20,000 bases of DNA from the IMG/VR virus record IMGVR_UViG_3300035670_009001, one strand, 5' to 3'. The translations under genes and the position numbers were made by a program. A model generated the notes under the pieces. That model worked only from the letters and a program-made list of their open reading frames with translations, was not told the DNA's origin and did no database searches. This stretch comes from an uncultured virus (IMG/VR IMGVR_UViG_3300035670_009001). Lineage: Duplodnaviria; Heunggongvirae; Uroviricota; Caudoviricetes. Within the stretch, counting starts at the first letter, position 1. Each line of letters starts with the position of its first letter. Shown here piece after piece: positions 1-20,000 of the stretch.

Positions 1-698
1 CGTAATAATGCAATTGTTGAATCTATGTGGATATAAGAATATACGTTTTCGATTGTATGTACCCTATATTCTTTACCTAGAAAATTTTGTAACCATTTGG
101 CACCCTTTAAATTACCAGTATTAGAAACCAAATACAATATATCATTATTACATCTAAGTATATTAGCTGCATCAAAAACAGGCTCATCATTATTCAATGT
201 AATTTTAGTTAAATCATCTCTTTGATACATTGAATCTAACAATCTTGGTTTAGGAGCACTAACCCAATTTGCACCTTCTTCCATTTTTTTTATAAAAATA
301 TCCTTAAAAGAATCGGTTTCAAATTGTCTAGATCTGAGAGACATGGGAGATTCTAAAATATTATTCCCGATTACAGTTACGGTATCTCGTGGACAAAATG
401 TATAATACTGTGTTGTTTCCCAATAACCATTGGAGACTACTTTTTGTGTATCAATTGGAGATGGTCTGTGTACCTTCACCCCAATGTTAGTCAATAAATT
501 AGAAAGATTTTCTAAATCTTCTTGTGTCTCATCATAAACCTGTTTATCCCAAAAACCAATTTCATTTTTTGGTATCTCAGTTTCAGTCGCATAGTTAATA
601 CAGTGTAAATCTTTACCGTGAGTAGGCATGTTGGCATTATCAATTGTACCAACAATTATTTCCTTTAATTTACCCCATTCATTATTAACTGAAACCAT
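1..698 (-). CDS. Amidinotransferase (glycine / inosamine-phosphate amidinotransferase family), partial, runs off the left edge
   Basis: Not in the ORF track. Manual translation from ATG at 698 gives MVSVNNEWGKLKEIIVGTIDNANMP...YYTFCPRDTVTVIGNNILESPMSLRSRQFE...NWVSAPKPRL...EPVFDAANILRCNNDILYLVSNTGNLKGAKWLQNFLG...HIDSTIALLR, open to the edge. The NEWxxLxEIIVG, PRD, EPxFDAA, GxxWL and HIDST motifs match AGAT/StrB1-type enzymes. The start overlaps the end of the upstream gene by 14 nt. Confidence 0.9.
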   Translation of the reverse strand, partial: MVSVNNEWGKLKEIIVGTIDNANMPTHGKDLHCINYATETEIPKNEIGFWDKQVYDETQEDLENLSNLLTNIGVKVHRPSPIDTQKVVSNGYWETTQYYTFCPRDTVTVIGNNILESPMSLRSRQFETDSFKDIFIKKMEEGANWVSAPKPRLLDSMYQRDDLTKITLNNDEPVFDAANILRCNNDILYLVSNTGNLKGAKWLQNFLGKEYRVHTIENVYSYIHIDSTIALL

Positions 699-1539
699 TT
701 GAATTTAACTTTTTAATCAAATATTTTATTACTATATCTTGCGAATCTTTACCATTGTGCCCACAATCTCGGGCTTTACTTTGACTATCGTCAATTACAT
801 TTATCAAATCAACATTATTAGAAATAAATGATTCTTTATACATCATTTCGAAATCAGTAGAATAACTCCAATGTAGAACTTCGACTCCCGCAGATTTCCA
901 AATTGAATCTACGGTCATTGGGTTAAAATTACTATTTTTTATCAATTCTCCGCAATTTTCTAAATAACTATGGTGATACCATTTACCATATTGTAATGGG
1001 CTTTCAGGATAATATTCTTCAATTCTAGCTCCCGAAAATGTTTCGAATTCCATCCCATCATATCCATCTGTCTTGAATGCATATACTGTTCTGTATGTTG
1101 CAGGCCATTGATAAACCACCAGCTTAGGTAATTTTTTTAATTTTAAAATATGGTTAAAAAATAAAATTGTGTTATACATTTGAAAATCAGAACTTGTCCC
1201 TCCGGCCCCCAAATTAAAAATATCTAAATCTAAAGACTTAGATAACTTAGTGGACCACATATCGTCATAATGTAACCCAACTCCTTCAGTATATGAACAC
1301 CCAAATGTTAATAGATAATCTTCATCTAAATCATCGAATTCTTTTGTCCTGTATCCCCATGAATTGTATTTATATTCAATTTCATTATCATAATAATACC
1401 AATCGGAGCCTTTTTCTTTCTTGTTTTTAAGATAAAGTTCTTCATAATCCGTAGAATGAAAGTATAATTTTTTGTTAATTAATCCATAATTTATTATTAT
1501 AGGGCATTCATTTGTAATTCTGAAAGTTGACATTTCCAA
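685..1539 (-). CDS. SGNH/GDSL-fold protein (putative O-acyl esterase or transferase)
   Basis: Block I-like TFGCSYTEG, block II-like NLGAGGTS and C-terminal DxxH (RDCGH). The start is uncertain because of a 43-nt overlap with the upstream gene. Confidence 0.65.
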   Translation of the reverse strand: MEMSTFRITNECPIIINYGLINKKLYFHSTDYEELYLKNKKEKGSDWYYYDNEIEYKYNSWGYRTKEFDDLDEDYLLTFGCSYTEGVGLHYDDMWSTKLSKSLDLDIFNLGAGGTSSDFQMYNTILFFNHILKLKKLPKLVVYQWPATYRTVYAFKTDGYDGMEFETFSGARIEEYYPESPLQYGKWYHHSYLENCGELIKNSNFNPMTVDSIWKSAGVEVLHWSYSTDFEMMYKESFISNNVDLINVIDDSQSKARDCGHNGKDSQDIVIKYLIKKLNSNGFS

Positions 1540-3416
1540 TATCTATTTTTTCTCTGATAATGATATGATGTATGATAAAAAGTTTTTTCGTCAAATTTTA
1601 CCCCACTATCATAGTGATTCAAATATAACAAAGTTTCTCCTGAATTTAAACAATACTTTAAAGTATCTTTTGAATACTTTTTAGTTATAGGATATGAAAT
1701 TCTATAGTCAAAACACATGTCCATGTTTAATTGGACTACGTCTTCCAAATCCATATTAAACTCTTCATTGACAAATTTTAAAAATTCTTGACGTAAAGTT
1801 TCTCTGTTTTGATGGAAAACAATACTTGTAGCACTTTTGTACTCCCAAAATATGTCATTTTCACCCAATACTTGTCTACCCCAAAACCCATTATTATAAA
1901 ATACAGACTTCAAAGATTCATCCGTTTTTTTTATTTCAGACCCTATCAAAGTTTCGGGATTATTAGTAAAATACCACAACATTTTTTCAATTACATCAAC
2001 ATGTTTGTATCCATGTTTATTAAAAAGGTATTCTAAAAGATAATGGCCCCACCCATAGTAATATAAAACAATCAATAAATGTGAAAATGAATGCCCTTTG
2101 AAAACGTCCTCTTCACTTGCAGTGTTTGTTTCCTTAACCCCCCAAGTATGTTCCACAATATAGTTTTCCAAATCCTCAACACTTAAATAAAACGTATCTA
2201 AAGGGACGGTTTCATATTTTAAACCATGTTTTTCCATATACCATGGTTGACCCATAGTGGCATTGTAGGTTAAAACTAGTGGATGAACCATCAAAAAATC
2301 TTTTTGTCCTAAATCAATTAATTTTTGGATTCCAATTTTTAATGTATCATAGGTTTCATTTGGCATTGGCCAAATTAATTCACTATAAGTAGAAATATTT
2401 TGTTCCCTATATTTTTGTAAATAAGAATATACTTTATCTTGTTTTAAATTAAATCTATTGGTCGCTAGTAATGTATCAGTGTTGAAACTTTGCATTGCAA
2501 ACGTAATCCCCTTAAAAAGTCTACTTTTAGCCTCATTGTCCATGACAGCAATTTCATATATTTGTTCAACATTTGATTTAGCCCACGTTACATCCCAAAA
2601 TTTGGGGTATCCTGTCTCTAACTTTTTTTGAATGACGTACCTCGTAATGTCTTTGTCTCTTTCCATCATACCCCAGTTTGAGTCACAAACACTAACATAT
2701 TCAATTTTTTTATCGGACATCCAATCTATTTCACTATACACTCTTTCTAAATCAAATGTTTTAATTTTTTGCCAATATTCATCACCAATATCACAAAAAG
2801 CACATTTATATGGGCACCCTCTCAGGGTTTCATATGTCACCTGCCATATTTGGGGTCCAATCTCTTTTTCAACTTTTTCAATAATCCAATCATAAAATCC
2901 GGAAAGTATTGGGCTTGGTATTATTTCTAAATTATTTAATCTTGATGGTAGATCACATAATTTTCCACTTTTTGGAAACACATGTGGTATGTTATCATAA
3001 TTTTCATTTTTTAGATACCTTTCTAAAATTTCTTTAAATGCAATTTCACCCTCTCCAAGAACCGCGATATCGAACATTTCATTTTTCTTAAAGAAGTCCA
3101 CGTCTCTTTTATCAACATTTGGTCCTCCAGTAATAATTAAACAATTAGGATATTTCTTCTTTATTTCTTTAGATAATTCTCGATTGTAATTCCAATTCCA
3201 TACATAACTACTTAGGGCTACAACATGCGGTTCGAAATCAATACTTTCAACGTATTTTTTTGGTGATTTTTTTTCAATGATTACATCCGAAACCCTGAAA
3301 TTTTTTTTTACCATTTCACTTGTCTGCGCGTACATCCATTGATAACTGATAGCAAGTGGTAAAAAACTATTAGGTCCGTATTTATCAACGACCTGCACCA
3401 ATAGTAAATTATTCAT
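1497..3416 (-). CDS. Cobalamin (B12)-dependent radical SAM protein, putative class B methyltransferase
   Basis: 639 aa. N-terminal B12-binding-like domain (VVALSSYVWN, IITGGPN, DIAVLGEGE) followed by IPSP...ETLRGCPYKCAFC (CxxxCxxC). Confidence 0.9.
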   Translation of the reverse strand: MNNLLLVQVVDKYGPNSFLPLAISYQWMYAQTSEMVKKNFRVSDVIIEKKSPKKYVESIDFEPHVVALSSYVWNWNYNRELSKEIKKKYPNCLIITGGPNVDKRDVDFFKKNEMFDIAVLGEGEIAFKEILERYLKNENYDNIPHVFPKSGKLCDLPSRLNNLEIIPSPILSGFYDWIIEKVEKEIGPQIWQVTYETLRGCPYKCAFCDIGDEYWQKIKTFDLERVYSEIDWMSDKKIEYVSVCDSNWGMMERDKDITRYVIQKKLETGYPKFWDVTWAKSNVEQIYEIAVMDNEAKSRLFKGITFAMQSFNTDTLLATNRFNLKQDKVYSYLQKYREQNISTYSELIWPMPNETYDTLKIGIQKLIDLGQKDFLMVHPLVLTYNATMGQPWYMEKHGLKYETVPLDTFYLSVEDLENYIVEHTWGVKETNTASEEDVFKGHSFSHLLIVLYYYGWGHYLLEYLFNKHGYKHVDVIEKMLWYFTNNPETLIGSEIKKTDESLKSVFYNNGFWGRQVLGENDIFWEYKSATSIVFHQNRETLRQEFLKFVNEEFNMDLEDVVQLNMDMCFDYRISYPITKKYSKDTLKYCLNSGETLLYLNHYDSGVKFDEKTFYHTSYHYQRKNRYWKCQLSELQMNAL

Positions 3417-4095: not shown

Positions 4096-4096
4096 T

Positions 4097-5143
4097 TCAA
4101 ATCATTGTTTCTAATACTTTTAGGTATTTGTCCTTGATTGTTTTTCGCCAATCATCAGTAACGAATACACTTTCTTTTTTTGTATAATTTTCAGCGAAAT
4201 TTGACCAAGTCGATGTGGGTACCTTTACCAAAAAAGAAGTATATGATAGTGAAAATAAATCGACTAAATTTTCAATAACATTACCGTAAACAAAATCACT
4301 TTTTTTGAATCCTGAATTCAAAATATAGTCGTAAACAACATTTAAAATGAAAGTCTTATCTACTAGATTATTTTTATATTTTTTGTAAAAATAATCCATA
4401 ATTTCATCTGGTACATCCGTACTAATATAAAATTTTTGATTTGGATTTATTTTCAACATATTATCCATAATGTTAAAATATAAAATGTCTCTATGAAATG
4501 AGTATGTTGAATTTGATTGTTCCGTTATTACTCTTTTAATTAAACTAAATTTATCTCTTTTATTTTCAGGAAGACTATTTAAATCATCTGTAGTATATGG
4601 TATCCCATTACCTCTTCTTATATGAATACCAACAACATTTTTCATTTCATTAATAATGGACTCTTCAACACTCTTATGTTTTAGTTTTATTTTGGACAAA
4701 GGCCTTTCTATTTTTTCAAAGTCTTTTTTAGTATATAAATTTGTTAATTCTCTATACCCAAAATTACTATAATAATGACCTTTATCTTCGAGTTTAAATT
4801 CATTATTTTTAAACATTTTTTCTATGTCATTGGTATATAATGGAGTTGCGGTATTTATCTTTTTATTAATTGTATCGTACACCGCAATGAATTTTAATTT
4901 TTCAACTTCATGTGGGTCTCCCTCAATATTTGTTATTGTTTTTGTTGTTGGTAAATCCAATAATTTATTTTCAGGCCAATATTTTTCTTCTAATAAAATA
5001 TAGTATTTAAAATCATTTTTTCGATTGATTTCATACGCCACCTCCCAATGTAATATTCTATTACAGAGTCCCGTATCTGTTGTAAATCCGTTCCAACCTC
5101 CAAATGGCTCTGGCCATCGTAATGTTCTTTCGTATTCCGCCAC
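4097..5143 (-). CDS. Fucosyltransferase-like glycosyltransferase (GT11/GT23/NodZ-type GT-B), paralog 2
   Basis: GTG start. Motifs GLCNR, VGIHIRRGN (GDP-sugar motif I), FYISTD (motif II) and DLFSLS...STWS (motif III). Confidence 0.75.
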   Translation of the reverse strand: MAEYERTLRWPEPFGGWNGFTTDTGLCNRILHWEVAYEINRKNDFKYYILLEEKYWPENKLLDLPTTKTITNIEGDPHEVEKLKFIAVYDTINKKINTATPLYTNDIEKMFKNNEFKLEDKGHYYSNFGYRELTNLYTKKDFEKIERPLSKIKLKHKSVEESIINEMKNVVGIHIRRGNGIPYTTDDLNSLPENKRDKFSLIKRVITEQSNSTYSFHRDILYFNIMDNMLKINPNQKFYISTDVPDEIMDYFYKKYKNNLVDKTFILNVVYDYILNSGFKKSDFVYGNVIENLVDLFSLSYTSFLVKVPTSTWSNFAENYTKKESVFVTDDWRKTIKDKYLKVLETMI

Positions 5144-5147
5144 CTAA

Positions 5148-6200
5148 TTATTTTTTTATAAATTGATTATACTTTTTCTTTATTTGAGTTTCCCATAATT
5201 CATCTACACGGGATGAAAGATTATTTTCTTTCCAATCCGCAAAATCGGACCATGTAGAATGTGGTACTTTGATAAGATACCCACAATAAACCAATGAGAA
5301 TAAATCAGAAACAGTTTGCACAATACTCCCATTTAAAATTTCGTGTTTTCGATAACCCGCATTGTGTAAAAATGTTTGAACCGTATTGTAAATGTGTAAA
5401 TTATCTATTAAATTATAACCATATTTTGTTCTATAATATTGCATAATTTCATGAGGTAAATCACTACTAATATAAAACTTTTGATTTGGATTTATTTTTA
5501 ACATATTATCCATGATATCAAAATAAAAACTATCATCATAAAAAAAACAATTATCACAAGTATCAACCGTATATTGATTTTTGAATAATCTAACCTTTTC
5601 CCTTACCTCTCTTGGAAAAGTTTCATAATTTTTTTCATTCAGGTATATACCATTTCCTCTCCTAATATGTACCCCAACTACATCTTTTAATTCATTTTTT
5701 AAATAGTATTCAATACTTTTATGTCTCAAATTTATATAATTAATTGGCCTAACTTCAGGTAAATCGTCAATTTTGTATTTATTAGCTAGCTCATTCAGTG
5801 TCCTGAACCCGAAATCAGAATAATAATGATTTTCAAATTTATTTAAAACAAAATTATTTTTTGAAAATAAAGATTCAATGGTGTCAGTATCTATTGGTGA
5901 TGATAATCTAACGATACCATTTTGAACGTCATATACAGTTTTGAATTTAAAAGAACTAAGTTCGTCAGAATCCATTTCATCAGTATCAACAATTACGGTA
6001 TTAGGTAATTCAATGAGCGGTATTTCAGGCCAATATTTTTTTTCTAAAAGTATTGTGTATTCGTAATTATTATAGCGGTTTATATGTTGAGCAATTTCCC
6101 AGTGAAATATTCTATTACATAAACCAGTGTCGTAGTTATTGCTTTTATCCCACCCATTCCAAGGCTCCAACCATCTTAATGTTTTTTTATATTGAGTCAT
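5148..6200 (-). CDS. Fucosyltransferase-like glycosyltransferase (GT11/GT23/NodZ-type GT-B), paralog 1
   Basis: GLCNR, VGVHIRRGN, FYISSD, DLFSLV...STWS. Co-linear with 4097..5143 and shares IMDNMLKINPNQKFYIS exactly. Confidence 0.75.
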   Translation of the reverse strand: MTQYKKTLRWLEPWNGWDKSNNYDTGLCNRIFHWEIAQHINRYNNYEYTILLEKKYWPEIPLIELPNTVIVDTDEMDSDELSSFKFKTVYDVQNGIVRLSSPIDTDTIESLFSKNNFVLNKFENHYYSDFGFRTLNELANKYKIDDLPEVRPINYINLRHKSIEYYLKNELKDVVGVHIRRGNGIYLNEKNYETFPREVREKVRLFKNQYTVDTCDNCFFYDDSFYFDIMDNMLKINPNQKFYISSDLPHEIMQYYRTKYGYNLIDNLHIYNTVQTFLHNAGYRKHEILNGSIVQTVSDLFSLVYCGYLIKVPHSTWSDFADWKENNLSSRVDELWETQIKKKYNQFIKK

Positions 6201-6203
6201 TTA

Positions 6204-7649
6204 TTAGTTATAATTTTCCTTATCTGAGATGTATTCCCCTGGTTCATAATGTGTTATTCGTCCATCGGTTACTTTTACATTAGGTATTGTTTCATCAACC
6301 ACAATTGAGTTGTACCAATCTTCTATTTCAGGAAAAGTTTCAACAAAACTTTTTTTCCTTCGTTTATCATATTGAGTATAAAAACTTTTAAAGTCGTGAA
6401 ATTGCATTTCCATATCCATTTCAGTTGTGTTGTGTCCTCGATTAACAACCTCAATATAATCAATTAACCTTTGAATTTGAGCCCCCTCATGCATATTAAT
6501 CAATGGATTTTTTTTGTTTTTTCTCCACCACATAGATAATTTACCATGCAATTCGTGTTTAATATCATCGGGTAATGTTAATGGTGACATGAATGCGGGC
6601 CACCTAAGAATATTAAAATCAACAATTGGTTTATTTGACCCATATTTAGACTTTAATATTAACATATCATCTAAAAACTCAGTAATACTAAATAGACATA
6701 AACTATTAATTGTCATCATTATAACGACTTGTCTAATATTTGCACTTTCAATAACTTGTACCAAGTTTTTTCTCCAAACTTTGTAATCCAATCCATCTCT
6801 TATGTACTCTGCTTGAGCTCCATAAGCTTCACAACTGGTATATATATCAAATTCTTTGACATCAATTTCCTGAGTTACATTGATTAACTTATCAATAATT
6901 TCTTGATTTACCCCTAAATTAGAATTAATCGCAACTCTCAAATTAGGTGATGGATATTTTTTAACTTCCTCCATAAATTGCCAAAAATTATGACTCAAGG
7001 TAGGCTCACCCCCTGTCACTCTAATTTCTTGTAATGTTTTCGTTATATCCGGCCACCACTCTAAAAATGCGTCGACATATGGGTTATTTTCGTTGTGTTT
7101 ACCATAGATTTCAGACCAAGACCCATCAGCATAATATGCCCCCGCACTTGTTGTTTTAAACTTTTGATAAGCTCCGTTCTTTTTGATGTCTTTTCCCCAA
7201 GTTGTAGAATAACCCGAATTACAATATGAACACGCAAAATTACAAGTACGATCAAAACTGACCTCAATTGTCTTTGGTGTAATGTCCGCATCCCAAGGAA
7301 GATGTTTGAGTTCTTCAATTTCTTCCTCCGTGTAAATTTGACTTTTATAAACACGATCAGAAATATTATTCCTCCCAATATCTTCTATCTTCCAACAGTA
7401 TGAACATTCTGCAGGTTTAGTCCCCTCCAACATCATTTTTCTGATTTCTTTTTTAAAATCAGTATTATGTAATGCGGATGGATTTGTTTTAATTTTTTCT
7501 AAGTCAATCGGATGTGGTAACGGAAGATGACATGAATTTGTAAATCCGTGACCCAAATGTAAACTAACGTTATACCATTTCGCAGCACAAAAACTACAAC
7601 TCACGGAATTTAAATGTTTATCTCTCCAATTTGCTAACTGCTCTGACAT
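6204..7649 (-). CDS. Radical SAM protein with N-terminal twitch-like Cys cluster
   Basis: CNFACSYC radical SAM motif, TGGEP and INSNL. N-terminal CSFCAAKW...SCH...ECSYCW auxiliary Cys pattern. Confidence 0.88.
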   Translation of the reverse strand: MSEQLANWRDKHLNSVSCSFCAAKWYNVSLHLGHGFTNSCHLPLPHPIDLEKIKTNPSALHNTDFKKEIRKMMLEGTKPAECSYCWKIEDIGRNNISDRVYKSQIYTEEEIEELKHLPWDADITPKTIEVSFDRTCNFACSYCNSGYSTTWGKDIKKNGAYQKFKTTSAGAYYADGSWSEIYGKHNENNPYVDAFLEWWPDITKTLQEIRVTGGEPTLSHNFWQFMEEVKKYPSPNLRVAINSNLGVNQEIIDKLINVTQEIDVKEFDIYTSCEAYGAQAEYIRDGLDYKVWRKNLVQVIESANIRQVVIMMTINSLCLFSITEFLDDMLILKSKYGSNKPIVDFNILRWPAFMSPLTLPDDIKHELHGKLSMWWRKNKKNPLINMHEGAQIQRLIDYIEVVNRGHNTTEMDMEMQFHDFKSFYTQYDKRRKKSFVETFPEIEDWYNSIVVDETIPNVKVTDGRITHYEPGEYISDKENYN

Positions 7650-7684
7650 TTTTTAATTTTTTTAAAATATACATTATTTTTTAA

Positions 7685-11926: not shown

Positions 11927-13368
11927 ATACCTACGTTTACTTGTATAATGTTATCGACAGTATTTTTTCCATATTCTCGGAATGTACATGTTGAAATCCC
12001 GTCATCTTTGAAATTAACACTATTTGTTAAAACTTCGTTATGATATCTTAATTGATTGTATCTTGTTGTTTGATTTTTCCACCCTCCATTTTCATATCCA
12101 TTCTCTTCATGCGATATTAATTTGAATGTCGATTCTCTTCGATAAGGTACTTTAATTTCTTTATAATTCTCAAATGTATGTCCGACAATTTCACAATTAA
12201 TTATGACTCCATTATTTTTATTTTCACTCAAGTCAATTAATTGATATCCTTTAATAAATTTAGCATCATAATACATCATTAATTTATAATCTGATTTATA
12301 TTCACCAAAGTTTTGGGTAAGCCCAAAAAATTGATTTTTTGATATCTCTAAAATTTCACTGTCATTTAAAATGTCGTTATAAACTGCGAATGAATTTATA
12401 GTCCCCTTAAAAAAATTATTTTCATTTTTTCTTTCAGGATTTCCACATCCAAGATAAAAATAAGGCTCTTGTGAATAATCATAAAATGATGTTATCCTTT
12501 TGTTATCTACTAATACACCATTTTGATACAACGAAATTTCCTTGTTATCTCTATCAATTGTGACCGTCAAATTTGTTTTGAAGTTAGGTAAAATGTCGCT
12601 GTGAATAAACGCAACTTTTTTCTGGTCAGTAAAGATTTGAAATGTATATCTTCTGTAAGAATTATAGGTGATTGTACAGTCATATCCAGGTATCGTGAAT
12701 ATTGACATTATATCCTCTTTTTTATCAACATTTAATTCTAGCTCATCAGGGCTGAATGAAACAAATATTGTAACTTTACCATTTGGATTATATGTAGTTT
12801 TGTTGTTAAAATCGAAAATATTTTTAGATTTAACATATGCATTTTTTCCATTAAAGTTCAAAGCCGCGGTATTCCCACCATCAATCGTGATTTTTTTAGT
12901 GTTTAATGGAATGTTATAATAATCACACCTGTAAAATAAGTCATCATCTTCATATCCCCATCCCCAATAATTGTTAGAATACCCATTTATTTCCTCAAAT
13001 GTTTTTATTGGAAATAATGTTACTCCACCAAAATATTGATCGAATACAATTCTTTTGAAATCTTTAGTTCCTATCAGATTGGTTGCCAAATGAAGTGGAA
13101 TATCACTGTAGGAATAATCCACTTCTTCAGGCAACATATCCAAGTCGTGAAAAACAACATAGTCACATCCAAGTTTCTTTGCATAAATGACACCAATGTT
13201 CAATAATTTACCACGATTGAAACTTTTTGCGTCATCTTGTTCAACAATAATTAGAGTATAATTAATATCTGAATCCGATAGATATTTAGTTATATGACTT
13301 TTGAATTTAATCAAGTCAAAATATCTATCCCGATAGGGTACAATTATTCCTAATTTATGTCCATTCAT
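11923..13368 (-). CDS. GT7 (beta-1,4-galactosyltransferase-like) glycosyltransferase with inserted LamG-like domain, paralog 1
   Basis: VPYRDR, FNRGKLLNIG, FHDLD, YFGGV and NGYSNNYWGWGYEDDD. Insert ALNFNGKNAYV...LYQNGVL...FKGTINSFAVYNDILNDSEI...DLSENKNNG. Confidence 0.88.
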   Translation of the reverse strand: MNGHKLGIIVPYRDRYFDLIKFKSHITKYLSDSDINYTLIIVEQDDAKSFNRGKLLNIGVIYAKKLGCDYVVFHDLDMLPEEVDYSYSDIPLHLATNLIGTKDFKRIVFDQYFGGVTLFPIKTFEEINGYSNNYWGWGYEDDDLFYRCDYYNIPLNTKKITIDGGNTAALNFNGKNAYVKSKNIFDFNNKTTYNPNGKVTIFVSFSPDELELNVDKKEDIMSIFTIPGYDCTITYNSYRRYTFQIFTDQKKVAFIHSDILPNFKTNLTVTIDRDNKEISLYQNGVLVDNKRITSFYDYSQEPYFYLGCGNPERKNENNFFKGTINSFAVYNDILNDSEILEISKNQFFGLTQNFGEYKSDYKLMMYYDAKFIKGYQLIDLSENKNNGVIINCEIVGHTFENYKEIKVPYRRESTFKLISHEENGYENGGWKNQTTRYNQLRYHNEVLTNSVNFKDDGISTCTFREYGKNTVDNIIQVNVGI

Positions 13369-13376
13369 CTATAGTT

Positions 13377-13565
13377 TTATTTTTTTGGATTTATTGTATT
13401 ATGCCACTCCGAAAGATAATATTGAATTCTATCACTCCATTCTTGTTTTTCAATTTCTTCAACCCAAACTGTAAGAGCGTCCAACGTGTTTGCAATTTTT
13501 TCTAAGGCTTTAACTTTTCGTTGCTCAAGCAACATTTTTTCTTTTTCTTTATCTGATTCTGTCAT
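13377..13565 (-). CDS. Small hypothetical protein (62 aa, predicted helical)
   Basis: Fills the gap between two genes and has an ATGA overlap with the upstream stop. No recognised motif. Confidence 0.7.
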   Translation of the reverse strand: MTESDKEKEKMLLEQRKVKALEKIANTLDALTVWVEEIEKQEWSDRIQYYLSEWHNTINPKK

Positions 13566-14419
13566 ATCAAAATTATTTTTTTAATTAAATTATTCCATTT
13601 TCTATATCTTTTGAATTCACCAATTCCTGAGGATTCTTCTATCATAAATTCTTCGTTATTCAAATCTATTAAAAATTTTGATTTTTCCAACTCTTTATAC
13701 ATTTTCATGTACTCATCTGAATATGAATAATCTTTATTGGTATCGGCAACTTTTTTTATTCTCTCGATTGAGGTTTCATCCCACTTAAAATGATGAACTT
13801 GCACGGAATGGGTGTTAATTGGCGCAATCAAAGGATGCCCCCATCCTTGCCATTTCCAAGTCGTATGACCATCAATATTTGCATAATGTTGGCCGTTAGT
13901 TATCGTCACCCACCCTTTTGTAACACAAATTTTATTTGGACACGCTTGACTCATCGGGTATCTAAAAAATCCCATGACAGGAAATTGATTCCAAATACTT
14001 TCATTATCTCTAATTTTTGGGAAAGTTCCTCCTTCACCTATTCTGTCAATAAATCCTCCTCTAACTATATCCCATCCATTTAATTCACAATCCAATATAA
14101 GTCTGTGTATATCGTCTTTGGGATACAAATGAAATTCATCAATATCTGCCACAACCCACCAATCATTTTTATATGTTGATTTAACTTCATTGTATAGGTT
14201 GGTGACCATTTCCCAATCGAAATTATGGTGGATGACTTCTTTAACTACACGAACATTATCATATTCAGATATAATACTTTTTACTTGGTCACTTATATTT
14301 GGATGTAAATCTGAATTATAACACACAATGTTAATTTCATTAACATATTTTTGATAATGTTTTATAAAATGTGGTAATAAATTAACACCATGGCCAATGA
14401 CAGTAACTAATCTTATCAT
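13562..14419 (-). CDS. GT-A fold glycosyltransferase (GT2/GT92-like)
   Basis: LLPHFIKHY, WWVVADIDEF (DxD), K...GQH and VHHFKW. Start moved from 14428 to the ATG at 14419, which gives an ATGA overlap with the upstream stop. Confidence 0.75.
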   Translation of the reverse strand: MIRLVTVIGHGVNLLPHFIKHYQKYVNEINIVCYNSDLHPNISDQVKSIISEYDNVRVVKEVIHHNFDWEMVTNLYNEVKSTYKNDWWVVADIDEFHLYPKDDIHRLILDCELNGWDIVRGGFIDRIGEGGTFPKIRDNESIWNQFPVMGFFRYPMSQACPNKICVTKGWVTITNGQHYANIDGHTTWKWQGWGHPLIAPINTHSVQVHHFKWDETSIERIKKVADTNKDYSYSDEYMKMYKELEKSKFLIDLNNEEFMIEESSGIGEFKRYRKWNNLIKKIILI

Positions 14420-15405
14420 TTCTTCCAAAAACTATAAATCCCTTTATCTAATTCATAATCACTCCATACAAATCTTTCTCTAATTGGTTGTTTCTTAGCC
14501 CATTCCCACATTCGACTCAACCCATCATATAATGTGGTTTTATCTGAAAACCCCAAAAGGTCGATAGATTTTTGATAGGTTGGGTGAGCGTTTTTTACTT
14601 CATGTCTTTTTTCTTTATAAACCACTTCACCATCTTTAATAACTTCTCTTAAAATTTTGTTAGCGTCATTGATAGTATAGTATTTAGTTCCTCCCAAATT
14701 AATAATTTCTTTAGAACAATTTTCTTGTTGTGATGACTTCCATAATCCTTCCAAACAATCATCAATGTAACTGAACGCTCTTTTTTGTTCACCGTCTCCA
14801 AAAATTGTCATTGGCTCCCCATTCAAATGTTGATACATCCAAATACCTAATACGTTTCTGTATTTGTCCCAAATATTTTGTTTGATACCGTAAAAATTGT
14901 GAGGACGAATTATACACCAATCCAAGCCATGTTGTTCACCGGCAACCTTAATATCCATTTCACATGCATACTTTGCGATTCCGTAAGGGTCGATGGGATT
15001 TTGTTGGTCATCTTCATGAAATGGAGGAGCACCGTGCCCATAAACTGCCATAGTTGATGAAAAAACAAGTCGTTTTACATTGTGTTTAATACACTCATTT
15101 ACTATGTTTGCAGTTGATATAAGGTTGTTTTCATAATTGTATTTTCTAATAAACGGGGATAATCCTTCGGCAGCATAAGCCGCAAAATGATATACATAAT
15201 CAGGTTTAGTTTGTTGAAACACATCTGATAATTTATCAGATTTACAATCAACATTAAAAAATTTAACATCAGGATGAACATTTTCAATGTACCCTCCACT
15301 CAAATTATCAACACCTATTATCTCAACATTAAGCTTGTTTTCAATTACCCAATCAGCAAGTCGTGACCCCAAAAGACCAGCAACTCCTGTTATTAATACT
15401 TTCAT
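14416..15405 (-). CDS. NAD-dependent NDP-sugar epimerase/dehydratase (extended SDR)
   Basis: VLITGVAGLLG (GxxGxxG), DNLS, HFAA, FSSTMAVYG, YGIAK (YxxxK), RPHNFYG and FGDGEQKRAFSYIDD. Confidence 0.93.
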   Translation of the reverse strand: MKVLITGVAGLLGSRLADWVIENKLNVEIIGVDNLSGGYIENVHPDVKFFNVDCKSDKLSDVFQQTKPDYVYHFAAYAAEGLSPFIRKYNYENNLISTANIVNECIKHNVKRLVFSSTMAVYGHGAPPFHEDDQQNPIDPYGIAKYACEMDIKVAGEQHGLDWCIIRPHNFYGIKQNIWDKYRNVLGIWMYQHLNGEPMTIFGDGEQKRAFSYIDDCLEGLWKSSQQENCSKEIINLGGTKYYTINDANKILREVIKDGEVVYKEKRHEVKNAHPTYQKSIDLLGFSDKTTLYDGLSRMWEWAKKQPIRERFVWSDYELDKGIYSFWKK

Positions 15406-16130
15406 ATTTTTTTATTTATTATTGTTATTCCACTTGATGAAGGTTTATCTTTTAATATACGGAAATTATGTAACTTAATCAAGTTCCATTCTTGAGTTTC
15501 TTGTAACTCGGCAACTAACTTGCACGGTCCATCGAATCTATGGTAATCTTCTTTTGCATCTTCAGAAACAATCAAAGTTTTTTCATATTCTTCATCTGTA
15601 TCATGTAACACAATAATTCCATTTTCAGATAATAATTTAGAATACAATTCAAAATCTTTTTTTACCCCTTCATAAGAATGGTCACCATCTATAAATAAAA
15701 AATCTATTTTAATATCTTGACGAACAAAAAAATCATAATATGCATCAACAGAAGTTGACTTTATTAATCGTGGATAAAATACCTGTCTAAAAAATGAATT
15801 TTCATCTTCTATGTTAGTTGGTCCTCCGACACCATTACAGGCATCTACCAAATAAGTAACCCCAATATCACCCCAATTATAATCAGGATTTCCCTCAAAT
15901 ATTTTTTGATTGTATAAATCAATTCTTGCTTGAGTCATTATTCTTGGGATAAACCCTCCACCTGACCCAATACAGACACAAACTTTTGACCTCATTTGTT
16001 GAATGAGGGAATACACCATGATACCATCTCCCAAATGTGATTCCGTAGCTCCGTGAGTCCAAAGATACGGAATTTGTTGTCCATCATTTGTAGTAATAAA
16101 TTCTTTAATATATTTTTGATTGGTTATCAT
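15402..16130 (-). CDS. Class I SAM-dependent methyltransferase (Methyltransf_24-like)
   Basis: CIGSGGG, FLFIDGDHSYEGVKKDF and IVLHDT. Start moved to the ATG at 16130 (MITNQK) to remove a 100-nt overlap with the upstream gene. Confidence 0.85.
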   Translation of the reverse strand: MITNQKYIKEFITTNDGQQIPYLWTHGATESHLGDGIMVYSLIQQMRSKVCVCIGSGGGFIPRIMTQARIDLYNQKIFEGNPDYNWGDIGVTYLVDACNGVGGPTNIEDENSFFRQVFYPRLIKSTSVDAYYDFFVRQDIKIDFLFIDGDHSYEGVKKDFELYSKLLSENGIIVLHDTDEEYEKTLIVSEDAKEDYHRFDGPCKLVAELQETQEWNLIKLHNFRILKDKPSSSGITIINKKI

Positions 16131-16143
16131 TTTAGAAACTGAA

Positions 16144-16839
16144 TTATTTTGTTTTTTTTCTTTTGTATTCCCACTCTGATTTCTTTTGAGTATTAGCCGA
16201 TAAACTTTTTCCATACGCAAAAGTTCCAATATGATAAATCTCATTACTAAGATTCATATCAATTTTTAATTGGTACCCTAAACTATTCAATTTTTTGAAT
16301 AGCGTAAAATCTTCACCTAACCAATCTTTTGTTGTTGGTTGAAAGGTGTATTCAAAATATGGCTTATTTAAGTTTTGAAATATTGATGTCCTCATTAATA
16401 AACATCCCATACCAGTGGCTTCAACAGTTAGTAATTCATTTTCAGATTGTACAGGGACCCAACTTTCCCAATCATTCGTATCCATAAACGTTACTGACTT
16501 AAATGGATGTGATCGCTTCATATAATTACAAGCCACAATATCTTGATTGTGAGATAACAATCTTAATAAAGTTGTTGATGGAAACATCATATCACTATCT
16601 AACCACAATACCCATTCCGACTTAACTTTAATTGCCTGTTCTATAAGACGTTCTCTTTGATTAATTAATATAGTTGAAGCATCAAAAAAAAGATGGGTAT
16701 TAATACCCATCTGTGTGGTAGTTTTTATCAAATTTGATAATGAATATGAAAAATGAGAATAAACTGTATCTCTTGTAGGAACGAGTATTGAAACCGAAGT
16801 TGGTACTCCGTGCCAAATTGTATTTTTAAATACGTTCAT
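16144..16839 (-). CDS. GT-A fold glycosyltransferase-like protein (GT2-like, phage type)
   Basis: SILVPTRD, LINQRERL, LWLDSDMMF (DxD), TGMGCLLM, GEDFTLF and HIG. Confidence 0.75.
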   Translation of the reverse strand: MNVFKNTIWHGVPTSVSILVPTRDTVYSHFSYSLSNLIKTTTQMGINTHLFFDASTILINQRERLIEQAIKVKSEWVLWLDSDMMFPSTTLLRLLSHNQDIVACNYMKRSHPFKSVTFMDTNDWESWVPVQSENELLTVEATGMGCLLMRTSIFQNLNKPYFEYTFQPTTKDWLGEDFTLFKKLNSLGYQLKIDMNLSNEIYHIGTFAYGKSLSANTQKKSEWEYKRKKTK

Positions 16840-17282
16840 TTTACACCAGGAATTGTTGAAGTGTCCACATCCGACTCAGTTATTGTATCGTTAATAATTC
16901 TGATAAGTTCTTTAGTTCTCTTCATTATTAATTTAAAATCATTAACAGGTAAATTACTAACAGTTGTAAAAGTTTCTTTAGAATATCTTCCGTCTAATAG
17001 AATCTCTACCGCAGCCGTTCTGGATAATTTTTCAATAGTTGCCCATCTACAATATTCAAAATCGTTTTTTTGTAATTTTTGTAAATTATCGGTATTGTGG
17101 GTTTTTAAAATATTTTCCATGATTTCCAATTCTTCTTGAGAATCATGGGTTTTTGGTATTAATTTGAGTTGTTGGTATCTATCAAAAAAATTTATTAACT
17201 TTTCTTTGTCATATTCAATTCCAACCCATACAATATTTTTGAGTTCGTACTCAGATAAAAAATTTTTGTAATCAAACTTCAT
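16836..17282 (-). CDS. Hypothetical protein (148 aa), first gene of the coupled run
   Basis: ATG start after an 81-nt intergenic region and ATGA overlap with the next gene. No confidently recognised motif. Confidence 0.75.
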   Translation of the reverse strand: MKFDYKNFLSEYELKNIVWVGIEYDKEKLINFFDRYQQLKLIPKTHDSQEELEIMENILKTHNTDNLQKLQKNDFEYCRWATIEKLSRTAAVEILLDGRYSKETFTTVSNLPVNDFKLIMKRTKELIRIINDTITESDVDTSTIPGVK

Positions 17283-17363
17283 AATTATATTTTTATAAAA
17301 ATATAGAAATATAATTACTTTTCTGAAGATTAGCGGAATTAATATAATAAAAATTTCAAATTA

Positions 17364-18185
17364 TTAAGGACATCCACTTTGGCCTGAAACAATTTGTAGT
17401 GAGCTGTTAACCGTTTGTTGAGGTGAAGACGTACCAGGCGCATTGTCCCAAACCCAAAAAGTTCCTGATACTGGGTCAACATATCTTTGACTACTTAATA
17501 TTGGAGTAATAGTGGTGTCATATAACGGTTGTCCAGTGCATCCATTTAGAGTATAATATAGAGGAGGGGTCACCGAAGGAGTTGGAGTATTAGTCGGGGT
17601 TACAGGTGGTGTTGGAGTATTTGAAGGTGTTACAGGTGGTGTTGGAGTATTAGTCGGAGTTGGAGTAGGTGAAGGACAAACACCAAATAAGGACATACCT
17701 CCATCCGCATCAACTTGGAATACTTCACCCGATACTGACTTAAACCACTTGGAGTTTCCATCAAACTCGTTAGCAGGTATGAATGTTGTACCACTATATA
17801 GAGATAATCCAAAAGTTATTGCAGCTTGTTGAAATGAAGTTATACCCGACTGTGAGACATAAACTGTTCGTTGATTACAAATTCCTTCGCAGGCAGCACT
17901 ATCACTATTCCATCCAACACTTCCTGAATCAGTACAAAGTATTAGTGCGGTAAAATTAACAGCACAATTATATTCATTAGGTGTGTCCAAACCTCCCATG
18001 TCAACAGATAACTCTGTTTCAACACCAGCAGGAATTGCTGTAACTCCAGCAGCTTGGGGAGGTTGTCTGTTAACCCCCAAAACTGAATTTAGTCCTATGT
18101 TTGCACCAGGAAATGGAACTAACCCAAATGCCCCATAGACACACCCTATAGATATTTCGTTTCCTGTTGCCGGTGTAAAACCCAT
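17364..18185 (-). CDS. Putative virion/fibre-associated protein with Pro-Thr linker and Cys-containing domains
   Basis: 273 aa, Gly/Ser/Thr-rich, with PSPTPTPTNTPTPPVTPSNTPTPPVTPTNTPTPSVTPP. Lies directly downstream of the S74 fibre gene. Confidence 0.7.
   Translation of the reverse strand: MGFTPATGNEISIGCVYGAFGLVPFPGANIGLNSVLGVNRQPPQAAGVTAIPAGVETELSVDMGGLDTPNEYNCAVNFTALILCTDSGSVGWNSDSAACEGICNQRTVYVSQSGITSFQQAAITFGLSLYSGTTFIPANEFDGNSKWFKSVSGEVFQVDADGGMSLFGVCPSPTPTPTNTPTPPVTPSNTPTPPVTPTNTPTPSVTPPLYYTLNGCTGQPLYDTTITPILSSQRYVDPVSGTFWVWDNAPGTSSPQQTVNSSLQIVSGQSGCP
17581..17670. repeat. About 3 x 30-nt imperfect tandem repeat encoding the Pro-Thr linker
   Basis: gttggagtat occurs at 17581, 17611 and 17641. 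Confidence 0.8.
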
Positions 18186-18212
18186 TAGTTACTGTCGATT
18201 TTATTTACCATT

Positions 18213-18260
18213 CCTCCAAATCATATTTATTTAATAAGAAATATAAATATGATTTGGAGG
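18213..18260. promoter_or_regulatory. Perfect 18-bp inverted repeat with 12-nt spacer (hairpin, terminator or operator)
   Basis: cctccaaatcatatttat (18213-18230) pairs with ataaatatgatttggagg (18243-18260). It is intergenic and begins 12 nt after the fibre stop codon. Confidence 0.7.
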
Positions 18261-18272
18261 TTAAGGGTTTTA

Positions 18273-20000
18273 TTATTCAATATTATTGTTTATTTCTTTT
18301 TTAAGTTTGTTAATTTGAACTTGTTGTTCTTTCACACATTCAATTAGAAGAGCAACAATTCTTTCATATTTAACCGCTAAGTATCCATTCTCTCTTCTTG
18401 TTACAATTTCAGGTAATACTTTTTGTATTTCTTGAGCAATTACCCCAACATCATGACCTTCATTTTCATGTATTCCTTCCATCGGAATCCAATCATATTC
18501 GTATCCACCAATTTGTGTAATTTTTTCGATTGGATTTTCGATAGGTATAATATTTTCTTTTAATCTTCTATCTGAACCATAGTACGCCACGACATCATTA
18601 GTCGCCCTAATTAACCCTGTCGTAACTGGTGACGCAGTTCCAACTCCTAATGCTCCGTTTATATATGCAGTTGTTCCATCGAATTGAAAATTAACTTCTC
18701 CATTAATAGTTCCAGCAGTTCCTGTGGCAGTTAGAACATAATTGTTCGTATTATTGTTAATTGTCCCTAAACCTGATGACCCACTAGAACCTGAAGTTCC
18801 ACTAGATCCTGATGTACCATTTGTACCAGAAGTTCCGTTTGTCCCTGAAGTACCGTTTGTACCAGAAGTTCCGTTTGTTCCTGATGAACCACTAGATCCT
18901 GATGTACCATTTGTACCAGAAGTTCCGTTTGTCCCTGAAGTTCCATTTGTACCCGAAGTTCCGTTTGTTCCTGAAGTTCCACTAGACCCTGATGTACCAT
19001 TTGTTCCTGAGGTTCCACTAGATCCTGATGTACCATTTGTACCCGAAGTTCCGTTTGTTCCTGATGAACCACTAGATCCTGATGTACCATTTGTACCAGA
19101 AGTTCCGTTTGTCCCTGATGTACCATTTGTTCCTGAAGTTCCACTAGACCCTGAAGTACCATTTGTTCCTGAAGTTCCACTAGACCCTGATGTACCATTT
19201 GTTCCTGAGGTTCCACTAGACCCTGATGTACCATTTGTTCCTGAAGTTCCACTAGATCCTGAAGTACCATTTGTTCCTGAGGTTCCACTAGACCCTGATG
19301 TACCATTTGTTCCTGAAGTTCCACTAGACCCTGATGTACCATTTGTTCCTGAGGTTCCACTAGACCCTGATGTACCATTTGTTCCTGAGGTTCCACTAGA
19401 CCCTGATGTACCATTTGTTCCTGAAGTTCCACTAGACCCTGATGTACCATTTGTCCCTGAAGTTCCACTAGACCCTGATGTACCATTTGTTCCTGAAGTT
19501 CCACTAGATCCTGAAGTACCATTTGTCCCTGAAGTTCCACTAGACCCCGATGTACCATTTGTTCCTGAAGTTCCACTAGATCCTGAAGTACCACTCGATC
19601 CAGATGTTCCCGATGTACCACTCGATCCAGATGTTCCTGATGTACCAGAAGTTCCATTAGTTCCACTTGTTCCTGAAGAACCTGATGTACCACTAGTTCC
19701 CGAAGATCCTGATGTACCACTAGTGCCTGAAGATCCTGATGTACCACTAGTTCCACTTGTTCCCGAAGTACCACTGGTACCTGATGTACCACTAGTTCCT
19801 GAAGAACCTGATGTACCAGATGTTCCTGAAGTCCCTGAAGTGCCACTTGTACCACTTGTTCCCGAAGTACCATTAGTTCCTGAAGTTCCGCTTGTACCTG
19901 AAGTACCGCTTGTACCTGATGTACCAGATGTTCCTGAAGTCCCTGAAGTACCACTTGTACCACTTGTTCCCGAAGTACCACTAGTTCCTGAAGTTCCGCT
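18273..20000 (-). CDS. Tail fibre-like protein: Gly-X-Y (GTS/GSS/GTN) repeat shaft plus C-terminal peptidase S74-type intramolecular chaperone; partial, start lies beyond the right edge
   Basis: The frame of track ORF 18273..18590 stays open to 20000 (575 aa): (GTS/GSS/GTN)n-GLGTINNNTNNYVLTATG...GALGVGT...IRATNDVVAYYGSDRRLKENI...GVIAQEIQKVLPEIV...LAVKYERIVALLIECVKE. SDxRLK and GxIAQE are S74 hallmarks. Confidence 0.9.
   Translation of the reverse strand, partial: SGTSGTSGTSGTSGTSGTSGTSGTSGTSGTSGTSGTSGTSGTNGTSGTSGTSGTSGTSGTSGTSGSSGTSGTSGTSGTSGTSGTSGTSGSSGTSGTSGSSGTSGTSGSSGTSGTNGTSGTSGTSGSSGTSGTSGSSGTSGSSGTSGTNGTSGSSGTSGTNGTSGSSGTSGTNGTSGSSGTSGTNGTSGSSGTSGTNGTSGSSGTSGTNGTSGSSGTSGTNGTSGSSGTSGTNGTSGSSGTSGTNGTSGSSGTSGTNGTSGSSGTSGTNGTSGSSGTSGTNGTSGSSGTSGTNGTSGTNGTSGTNGTSGSSGSSGTNGTSGTNGTSGSSGTSGTNGTSGSSGTSGTNGTSGTNGTSGTNGTSGTNGTSGSSGSSGTNGTSGTNGTSGTNGTSGTNGTSGSSGTSGSSGSSGLGTINNNTNNYVLTATGTAGTINGEVNFQFDGTTAYINGALGVGTASPVTTGLIRATNDVVAYYGSDRRLKENIIPIENPIEKITQIGGYEYDWIPMEGIHENEGHDVGVIAQEIQKVLPEIVTRRENGYLAVKYERIVALLIECVKEQQVQINKLKKEINNNIE
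18770..20000. repeat. Hierarchical coding tandem repeat (9-nt base unit, 13 x 36-nt array, 108-nt period duplication)
   Basis: ccactaga recurs every 36 nt from 19141 to 19573 (unit GTNGTSGSSGTS). 19807-19892 is repeated at 19915-20000 with 2 mismatches. Confidence 0.95.

Follow-up and report, generated by a model that had tools for sequence, protein, structure and literature searches.

What would a bacteriophage do with a pathway for an elaborately tailored glycan, and on what would it build the chain? The question is raised by a 20,000-nucleotide stretch of an uncultured virus (IMG/VR record IMGVR_UViG_3300035670_009001; the whole stretch is called the window here), in which the 3′ part of a collagen-like tail fibre gene and the gene of a protein with a Pro/Thr linker are followed by an island of 17 tightly spaced genes, rich in predicted glycosyltransferases (GTs), sugar-tailoring enzymes and radical S-adenosylmethionine (SAM) enzymes. 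The answer that we tentatively favour is a glycan pathway that is expressed late, works in the cytoplasm without a lipid carrier and is directed at virion proteins; in this lineage the proline-free collagen fibre would be its likeliest acceptor. That the glycan is built directly on the fibre is plausible; the sequence comparisons reported here neither show nor exclude it.

The collagen-like fibre and its phage

The part of the fibre gene that lies in the window encodes 136 uninterrupted Gly-X-Y triplets (80 Gly-Thr-Ser, 28 Gly-Thr-Asn and 28 Gly-Ser-Ser), in agreement with the roughly 135 counted in a preliminary description of the same DNA, followed by a short globular part and a Peptidase_S74 intramolecular chaperone. 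Pfam recognizes Collagen (PF01391, 3.9e-59) and Peptidase_S74 (PF13884, 5e-18, residues 476–533 of the open frame), and PHROG tail-fibre families are matched with E values down to 1e-48. The full-length fibre of a close relative, the 326-kb IMG/VR record G002, has 1706 residues and 404 triplets. About 90 % of the X and Y positions in the window fibre are Ser or Thr and the remainder are Asn; none is proline and none is charged. Across related fibres the Ser/Thr fraction at these positions is 0.93–1.00, with proline at 0.00 and charged residues at no more than 0.06.

The window fibre therefore has at its X and Y positions neither of the usual collagen stabilisers, which are proline or hydroxyproline and Lys-Asp/Glu pairs. 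Viral collagen-like proteins are described, in the parts of PMC11923368 concerned with stability, as unusually rich in the salt-bridge triplet Lys-Gly-Asp (KGD) and usually stabilised by KGD/KGE pairs. The same parts name Thr glycosylation as an alternative stabiliser of collagen and report that (Gly-Pro-Thr)10 folds only once all of its Thr residues carry galactose, being otherwise a random coil. A (Gly-Thr-Ser)n shaft without both usual stabilisers is the strongest mechanistic reason to expect glycosylation in this system.

The neighbouring protein of 273 residues, with its linker of about 45 residues, matched no family. Its homologues occupy the equivalent place in relatives, and related lake-water contigs carry a 30-base insertion at window position 17622, in the linker region, so that linker length varies between strains. 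It is possible that this protein is a second acceptor or a fibre-associated protein.

All long open reading frames (ORFs) of the window lie on the minus strand, mostly overlapping or abutting, at a G+C content of about 30 %. In the direction of transcription the 3′ part of the fibre gene comes first, then the Pro/Thr-linker protein and then the island, which runs to the window start; an ORF for 62 residues takes the number of genes after the Pro/Thr-linker protein to 17, and the ORF map bears out the packed same-strand array that had been noted earlier. The window is collinear with two IMG/VR contigs (L001 and L003; 82–90 % nucleotide identity over positions 1–17368) and with G002 (about 81 % over 8319–17563), and the first of its radical SAM enzymes has 310 IMG/VR relatives. 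G002 and two further near-complete relatives, G003 and G004, are 316–336 kb long at a CheckV completeness of 95–100 %. All three encode a T4 Gp23-type capsid protein (PF07068, about 1e-63), the gene lying in these relatives and not inside the window itself, and none of the three has a capsid of the nucleocytoplasmic large DNA viruses (NCLDV). Along one strand of G002 come gp25, baseplate J, several large structural ORFs, a protein with Ig/SprB repeats, the collagen/S74 fibre and then the island, and PHROGs confirmed its sheath, tube, prohead protease and major head protein. A Terminase_6C search of the relatives gave no match, IMG/VR returned no match to an exact 40-mer taken from the start of the window, and the sole megablast match among GenBank phages was to the collagen repeat of two 735-kb uncultured phages (72 % identity). 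Judged by these relatives, the window comes from an uncultured jumbo phage with a T4-type capsid and a genome of about 320 kb, and covers the tail-fibre end of its late structural genes. Because its syntenic relatives carry the Gp23 capsid, sheath and baseplate, the contig is not a bacterial O-antigen locus, and the doubt expressed earlier, that it might be a bacterial O-antigen or exopolysaccharide locus, gives way to a phage origin.

A 248-kb contig binned as Flavobacteriaceae (L281) contains the entire syntenic island, from the Pro/Thr-linker protein through a UDP-glucose dehydrogenase. This contig probably stems from a jumbo phage and was sorted into a metagenome-assembled genome (MAG), and it is at most a weak hint of the host. 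Relatives at 90–97 %, on contigs of up to 51 kb, are also present in four lake-water runs labelled RNA-Seq, which may be DNA and are uninformative on expression.

Membrane functions, timing and co-occurrence

The preliminary description had seen no flippase, polymerase, ATP-binding cassette (ABC) exporter or membrane protein in the window, and hydropathy and Pfam agree with it. In 17 of the 18 window proteins no hydrophobic 19-mer reached a Kyte–Doolittle value of 1.6, the exception being an interior stretch of a radical SAM enzyme. Hydropathy likewise revealed no flippase or polymerase in the window or G002, the WecA/MraY-type and Wzx/Wzy Pfam models lying outside this search, and no ABC-2 permease or ATPase was found in the window or in the stretches of G002 that were scanned. 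The proposed absence of a lipid-carrier pathway is further supported by the relatives: one of the 404 ORFs of G002, of 236 residues, has at least three transmembrane-like segments, and the initiating transferase family Bac_transf (PF02397) was detected in none of five near-complete relatives, compared with nine of 14 control genomes. Since nothing in the window or in complete relatives would start a chain on a lipid carrier or take it across a membrane, the chain would most likely be built in the cytoplasm on Ser/Thr residues of virion proteins.

The timing of the pathway was approached through a putative late-type motif. In G002, 69 copies of [AG]TATTTAT lie in the 100 nt that precede ORFs, most of them between −12 and −28 relative to the start codon, and 8-mers that contain it (e.g. 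ATATTTAT and TATTTATA) are 14–15 times enriched in the 60 nt upstream of ORFs. PHROG matches were obtained for 13 of the 44 motif-bearing ORFs scanned, and comprise ten virion or lysis genes (sheath, tube, adaptor, prohead protease, a second collagen fibre and five endolysin/peptidase proteins), one homing endonuclease and two families of unknown function, with no replication gene among the 13. The motif stands at −13 of the G002 fibre gene and upstream of no ORF within the 27-kb island. In the window, its single minus-strand copy starts at 18250, inside the perfect inverted repeat that separates the fibre stop codon from the next gene, and the motif is present on both strands of this hairpin. 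The placement is consistent with an island expressed late and along with the fibre, perhaps at a level reduced by the hairpin, and we infer such timing. The hairpin itself is possibly a stabiliser, or an attenuator or terminator that would keep enzyme output below that of the fibre; it may also, or instead, serve the next gene as a promoter. Sigma-70-like and terminator-like sites in the window were at chance level. The T4 late box TATAAATA occurred there four times against 4.7 expected, with no site in a minus-strand intergenic place, and was not enriched in G002.

Co-occurrence of fibre and island was examined in both directions. Around relatives of the S74 end we fetched 80 loci, of which 13 had a Ser/Thr-dense collagen and 12 of these at least 7 kb of downstream sequence; the remaining one (L181), in which 583 bases follow the fibre, was dropped. 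A GT-rich cluster stood beside the fibre in all 12 evaluable loci, in four types. Six loci had the window-type core (by blastp), and four had a GT2/GT1/methyltransferase cluster convergent with the fibre (L184 and L185 by Pfam, L187 and L188 by homology). Pfam revealed an FkbM/GT9/GT4 cluster in L186, and an Anp1-GT plus a GT2/GNAT/KASIII/DegT cluster in L189. Among control S74 loci, three of 25 had a GT within 6 kb downstream, in a scan that omitted the three largest ORFs and from which about 35 loci with short flanks or duplicates were excluded; these three were two moderate-Ser/Thr collagen fibres, one of them beside a 2-oxoglutarate (2OG) oxygenase, and one truncated fibre. A capsid-based search for genomes to serve as a negative set yielded mainly pieces of 4–15 kb, which were left aside.

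Several observations weigh against the fibre as the acceptor. The core set (methyltransferase, GT2_4, both GT7-LamG proteins and an N-terminal-twitch, or N-twitch, radical SAM enzyme) also lies directly behind eight non-collagen S74 fibres of ordinary Ser+Thr content (0.21–0.24), and three complete genomes with the core set (G006, G007 and G008; 198, 245 and 288 kb) contain no (G-[ST]-[ST])x5 stretch, compared with 245 in G002. The association of gene set and fibre that had been suggested earlier thus holds from fibre to cluster and fails from cluster to fibre, and this split keeps alive three alternatives, namely remodelling of the host envelope, another virion acceptor and a soluble glycoside. 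The C-termini of the Ser/Thr-dense fibres are 63–92 % identical, so the 12 loci represent one fibre family in related phages and not 12 independent events. In one cluster type the GT genes converge on the fibre gene and are not co-transcribed with it, and in the window the strong hairpin after the fibre gene could stop transcription. The tail-fibre region of aquatic T4-like phages is presented, in the portions of PMC7029224 devoted to it, as a hypervariable site that collects cargo, and position alone could therefore explain why fibre and island adjoin. Lipid-linked intermediates, too, are handled by GTs that are soluble or peripheral, which makes the missing membrane parts compatible with a use of the host carrier and exporters, and no initiating protein O-glycosyltransferase was identified.

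Two other arrangements were met among the fibre loci. In L229 (10469–12203), the genes after a collagen/S74 fibre that contains Pro encode a 2OG-Fe(II) oxygenase and a GT1, which look like a hydroxylase-plus-GT pair for a more ordinary collagen. In L239, L248 and L250, a tryptophan-halogenase-family gene lies between two 2OG oxygenases directly after the S74 fibre gene.

Enzymes of the island

Table 1. Features of the window in the order of transcription, with the basis of each assignment
Feature	Position	Strand	Basis
Collagen-like tail fibre, C-terminal 575 aa, N-terminus beyond the window	18273..20000	-	Pfam, PHROGs, triplet count
18-bp perfect inverted repeat between fibre stop and next gene	18207..18254	-	Sequence reading
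273-aa protein with Pro/Thr linker of ~45 aa (PTPTPTNTPTPPVTPSNTP...)	17364..18185	-	Composition
148-aa protein, conserved beside Anp1-like GT	16836..17282	-	Relatives
GT-A glycosyltransferase, Anp1-like	16144..16839	-	PF03452 2e-9; phrog_1574
Class I SAM methyltransferase (Methyltransf_24)	15402..16244	-	Pfam 5.5e-12
NAD-dependent nucleotide-sugar epimerase/dehydratase (short-chain dehydrogenase/reductase, SDR)	14416..15405	-	Pfam 1.4e-47
Glyco_tranf_2_4 glycosyltransferase	13562..14428	-	Pfam 3.3e-6, just above cut-off; conserved in 39/80 loci
62-aa ORF	13377..13565	-	ATG overlaps TGA of preceding gene; 67-aa ORF at equivalent place in G002
GT7 (beta-1,4-galactosyltransferase-like) + Laminin_G_3 lectin-like domain	11923..13368	-	Pfam
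Second GT7 + Laminin_G_3 fusion	10505..11926	-	Pfam
LamG-like N-terminal domain (~235 aa) + N-twitch radical SAM (NF033640)	8409..10505	-	NCBIfam 9.6e-90, residues 243-689
Stand-alone LamG/ConA-like jelly-roll protein, 246 aa	7685..8425	-	Model, fold matches
N-twitch radical SAM (NF033640)	6204..7649	-	NCBIfam 5.6e-93
Two paralogues of 348 and 350 aa, putatively of the fucosyltransferase superfamily (GT-B variant)	4097..6200	-	Fold search, motif
Short DegT/DnrJ/EryC1-family sugar aminotransferase, 228 aa	3409..4095	-	Pfam 6.5e-15
B12-binding radical SAM, KedN5-family C-methyltransferase-like	1497..3416	-	Pfam, NCBIfam 3.7e-60
284-aa protein, possibly SGNH-type esterase/acyltransferase	685..1539	-	Motif level only
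StrB1-type arginine:amine amidinotransferase, N-terminal 232 aa (336 aa in relatives)	3..698	-	Family profile

The preliminary description had counted six GT-like proteins and three radical SAM enzymes in the island (Table 1), and both counts stand: four of the GT-like proteins are recognized by Pfam and two by a probable fucosyltransferase fold, and of the radical SAM enzymes one is B12-binding and two are of the N-twitch type. Both GT7 proteins have GT7N and GT7C domains by Pfam. For the first of them (11923–13368), in which the DxD and WGWG-EDD motifs were aligned, the best solved relative of the catalytic domain is B4GalT7 (3lw6, 7.9e-29), with matching HD(L/V)D(M/L)LP and WGWG-EDD stretches. 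The catalytic domain aligns with animal B4GalT7 and B4GalT1 (CAZy GT7; 3lw6 and 1nf5) over about 150 residues; the phage proteins differ in being soluble, without a stem or transmembrane region, and in having a C-terminal LamG-like domain. B4GalT7 extends protein-linked Xyl-O-Ser.

The two paralogues at 4097–6200 had no Pfam match. The top PDB matches of a model built from ten relatives (predicted local distance difference test, pLDDT, 82.6) were all fucosyltransferases (NodZ, FUT8, AtFUT1 and POFUT1/2), at E values of 3e-6 to 1e-3 and TM-scores of 0.40–0.47. Invariant in the family is H-x-R-R-x-x-G (H174, R176, R177 and G180), which we take to correspond to the HxRRxD-type nucleotide-binding motif of fucosyltransferases. 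Fold matches and motif together make 'GT-like' a reasonable description. A profile of the paralogues against PDB sequences gave MAP-kinase matches only (E of at least 0.02), which were judged to be chance.

The B12-binding radical SAM enzyme has the domains of a class B radical SAM methyltransferase (PF02310, 3.9e-9; PF04055, 1.1e-7). Its NF033712 score of 203.8 bits is far below the 700-bit cut-off, and it is therefore not a KedN5 equivalog. Both N-twitch proteins exceed the NF033640 cut-off of 170 bits (312.2 and 301.5 bits). A search by sequence found no solved relative of the one at 6204–7649, and our literature search found no study of the family.

By alignment, the stand-alone jelly-roll protein and the N-terminal 235 residues of the LamG-radical SAM protein form one family, whose model (pLDDT 86) is a ConA/LamG jelly roll; the nearest folds are the LamG domain of PAPP-A, a Bacteroides carbohydrate-binding protein, collagen IX NC4, sialidase CBM40 and neurexin LNS. 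The profile of the family matched the C-terminal domain of one GT7 protein with an hhalign probability of 93.5 %; hhalign gave no match to the C-terminal part of the first GT7 protein, though Pfam finds Laminin_G_3 there. Four consecutive gene products thus carry or adjoin a LamG-like module. Polypeptide GalNAc-transferases use a lectin domain on mucins as a docking device, and a shared LamG docking handle would make most sense for a polymeric target.

The epimerase, methyltransferase and aminotransferase of the preliminary description are likewise upheld by Pfam, and its amidinotransferase by a profile of full-length relatives, which matched the inosamine-phosphate amidinotransferase StrB1 (1bwd) at 3e-108 over 335 positions; the window edge cuts this gene, leaving the C-terminal third outside. 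The relatives share invariant C328, H224 and D226, presumably the catalytic Cys-His-Asp. The likeness to StrB1 extends over the full length of the family profile, and the difference lies in the setting, a glycan island and not a cyclitol pathway, where an amino sugar is the probable substrate. The methyltransferase probably starts further downstream than its longest ORF, because relatives have 241 residues and not 280, and its 101-base overlap with the Anp1-like GT gene is probably a longest-ORF artefact. The short DegT protein, a form conserved in relatives, has Lys at the SF..K..G.GG place in a weak collinear alignment, and phmmer found no solved relative. In the full-length DegT of G002 (L081, 566–1753), His-His (SFYFGHH) aligns, again weakly, at the place of the pyridoxal phosphate lysine, and this protein may be a dehydratase-type member rather than an aminotransferase. 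The assignment of the 284-residue protein as SGNH is a weak one: Ser82 (in GCSYTEG), G113 and D258-x-x-H261 are invariant in its family, and an Atlas lead has 15 % of one cluster as Lipase_GDSL; neither Pfam nor the PDB gave a match.

The island exchanges cassettes between close relatives. In G002 it further contains the full-length DegT, DUF5672, a GDSL protein, a UDP-glucose dehydrogenase, GT25 and a second epimerase, and that genome also has a carbamoyltransferase. The opposite end of the G002 record (311–326 kb; L096, 12820–17461, and L097, 368–10172) encodes five 2OG-Fe(II) oxygenases, a radical SAM enzyme, a methyltransferase, a carbamoyltransferase, split E1/transketolase-like genes, a GDP-mannose dehydratase-type SDR and further SDRs; in a circularly permuted record the sugar island would measure about 40–50 kb.

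Possible acceptors and related systems

In the pathway that we propose, host nucleotide sugars would be tailored by 4-keto/epimer chemistry, amination, conversion of an amine to a guanidino group, and C- and O-methylation, as the enzyme families suggest, with further steps added by the two N-twitch radical SAM enzymes. The six GTs would join the tailored sugars into a chain, for which the charge-free (Gly-Thr-Ser)n fibre, and perhaps the neighbouring Pro/Thr-linker protein, would be the best acceptors. Glycosylation could then stabilise the triple helix in place of hydroxyproline or salt bridges and set the surface chemistry of the fibre, and the LamG-like modules on both GT7 proteins, one radical SAM enzyme and one free protein may hold the enzymes to the growing glycan or to the fibre itself. 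A bolder version, which we consider somewhat unlikely, holds that a fibre without proline and charge pairs folds and works only by means of a dedicated, phage-encoded, lipid-free glycan coat, probably guanidino-bearing and C-methylated; that the LamG-GT7 and N-twitch enzymes ride the fibre; and that cassette swaps alter surface and host range with the protein unchanged.

The enzymes may instead decorate lipid-linked intermediates of host lipopolysaccharide (LPS), capsule or envelope by way of the host's own carrier, initiating transferase and exporters, which would change the surface of the infected cell, for example by blocking other phages, and would make the place beside the fibre a permissive cargo site. 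We regard this as unlikely, even though it is the reading offered for the same kind of island in those parts of PMC7029224 and PMC12801897 that treat it. The independence of the core set from fibre type speaks for it, as do the UDP-glucose dehydrogenase, GT25, GDP-mannose dehydratase and carbamoyltransferase that relatives add, all typical of O-antigen or capsule loci, and the two of six Bdellovibrionota loci in which N-twitch radical SAM enzymes lie beside ABC-2 exporters, GT1 and DegT. It is harder to reconcile with a window and a G002 genome in which hydropathy and the Pfam scans made found no initiating transferase, flippase, polymerase or ABC permease; with the late-type motif, whose placement favours expression with virion genes, when a change of surface would have little time to act; and with the fusion of GTs and a radical SAM enzyme to lectin-like modules, since such fusions are, to our knowledge, not a usual feature of O-antigen GTs. 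More doubtful still is another phage-made acceptor, be it a different part of the S74 fibre, capsid decoration proteins or a free polymer, which would make the Ser/Thr-rich collagen an unrelated feature of the lineage. The core set does follow non-collagen S74 fibres in eight loci, the S74-fibre neighbourhood is kept though the S74 parts are only 40–51 % identical, and an Ig/SprB-repeat protein lies upstream in G002; however, a collagen free of proline and charge would still need a stabiliser, and no other acceptor was identified.

A soluble aminoglycoside-like or other small glycoside, serving as a weapon or signal, seems improbable. The amidinotransferase is closest to StrB1 of streptomycin synthesis, and the DegT, B12 radical SAM, twitch radical SAM and carbamoyltransferase families all have counterparts in aminoglycoside pathways, but six GTs, two of them with lectin modules, exceed what such a molecule needs, cassettes are swapped between close relatives as in glycan loci, and no cyclitol synthase, resistance or export gene was seen in the window by Pfam, NCBIfam and hydropathy. 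Many SPASM/twitch enzymes act on peptides, and the N-twitch enzymes with their LamG partners might modify the fibre polypeptide by cross-links, epimerisation or methylation alongside its glycosylation. Two Bdellovibrionota N-twitch loci do have SPASM radical SAM enzymes and a small S74-domain protein, one of them with PqqD; yet the phage N-twitch family travels with sugar genes, arrays of the enzymes lie beside epimerases and carbamoyltransferases, and Pfam found neither a precursor peptide nor a RiPP recognition element (RRE) in the window, and we rate this reading marginally below a soluble product. We give very little credence to hypermodification of phage DNA with sugars. A gene of the thymidylate synthase family, whose product could be a hydroxymethylase, occurs in four of five relatives, but it lies about 155 kb from the G002 island and is absent from the complete relative G003, which has the N-twitch radical SAM enzyme, both GT7 proteins, GT2_4 and the methyltransferase. 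We know of no DNA glucosyltransferases in the GT7, fucosyltransferase-like or Anp1-like families.

The claim that the pathway is more elaborate than known phage GT sets is partly right. If the glycan goes onto the fibre, it would be a virion-glycosylation pathway far larger than that of mycobacteriophages; numerous GTs together with radical SAM cassettes are already in print for the tail-fibre region of aquatic T4-like phages (PMC7029224, PMC12801897), including, among the examples given in PMC12801897, a cyanophage with 13 GTs, and a 2025 account of large aquatic 'moraphages' (PMC12619734) describes core GTs and, where it discusses them, mentions virion glycosylation as one possibility. The host recognition clusters of pelagimyophages and of the cyanomyophages P-SSM2, S-SCSM1 and S-SCSM2R, as described in PMC7029224 and PMC12801897, resemble the island in being a large variable block by the tail fibres, with many GTs, nucleotide-sugar enzymes, radical SAM cassettes, and collagen-repeat and ConA-domain proteins nearby. 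In the relevant sections of both papers they are read as modifying host O-chain, cell wall or DNA, without a link to fibre composition. The present system differs from them in its phage of about 320 kb, its GT7-LamG and LamG-radical SAM fusions, its StrB1-type amidinotransferase and its Pro-free Ser/Thr collagen. Our literature search found no paper that combined phage, tail fiber, glycosylated, collagen-like and glycosyltransferases, and what is new here is the two-way co-occurrence test, the stabiliser argument, the map of the late-type motif and the contrast with exporter-bearing cellular loci.

Three further systems are comparable, in which proteins are glycosylated in the cytoplasm or by a neighbouring enzyme. 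Mycobacteriophage GTs glycosylate the phages' own capsid and tail proteins in the cytoplasm (Freeman et al. 2023, as summarised in PMC12619734). According to that summary, GTs are few in this system, the acceptor sites are C-terminal, the host is an actinobacterium and a set of sugar-tailoring or radical SAM enzymes is lacking; it is experimentally proven, whereas for the window virion glycosylation is a prediction. BclA of Bacillus and BclA3-SgtA of Clostridioides difficile share with the fibre locus G-X-Thr collagen repeats and a soluble GT encoded beside the structural gene: SgtA, encoded beside bclA3, O-glycosylates Thr, and accepts Ser, in collagen-repeat peptides (PMC7157674). At the end of the BclA glycan stands an amino sugar that is heavily tailored. 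Both differ, as far as that paper covers them, in Gly-Pro-Thr repeats that contain proline, in a single initiating GT-A/TPR enzyme and in a bacterial spore surface in place of a virion, and the likeness is one of arrangement. In the Mimivirus group, by the account of PMC9614988, the fibrils of the virion are coated in the cytoplasm by sugar-synthesis enzymes and GTs that the virus itself encodes, and the host secretory pathway takes no part; the virus is eukaryotic and of another capsid lineage, its carrier proteins are not collagen-like, and the relatives of the window have no NCLDV capsid.

If the glycan is indeed built on the fibre, this would be the first collagen shaft of a tailed phage that is stabilised and functionalised by the phage's own glycosylation machinery, abundant aquatic phages could change host recognition through sugar chemistry, and the printed assumption that such islands are host-LPS genes would be overturned. 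Whatever the acceptor, the island offers a soluble test bed for N-twitch radical SAM enzymes, GT7-lectin fusions, and a pair of sugar amidinotransferase and half-size aminotransferase.

Cellular relatives of the N-twitch radical SAM enzymes, at 30–52 % identity, occur in 70 loci of bacterial assemblies, nearly all of them Bdellovibrionota. Mb-sized contigs and a single 3.7-Mb chromosome are among the sources, and the genes often form arrays of as many as nine. Across six scanned Bdellovibrionota loci the neighbours include a carbamoyltransferase, DegT, GT1, a GDSL protein and further SPASM radical SAM enzymes. The two loci with exporters (L292, 11341–16214, and L300, 14985–18808) have an ABC-2 permease and ATPase together with a small stand-alone S74-domain protein of 149–159 residues, and PqqD is present in L292. 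As judged from these neighbourhoods, the cellular family sits in sugar contexts with an exporter, and the phage version sits in one without. S74 proteins lie within 10 kb of N-twitch radical SAM enzymes in six of 52 bacterial loci of at least 9 kb, a frequency that may be no more than chance and is given no weight here. In L258, L263 and L265, from Bdellovibrionota and an unclassified bacterial MAG, four to nine N-twitch paralogues follow one another, and the array of L263 adjoins an integrase, TrbI, CagX and TraG.

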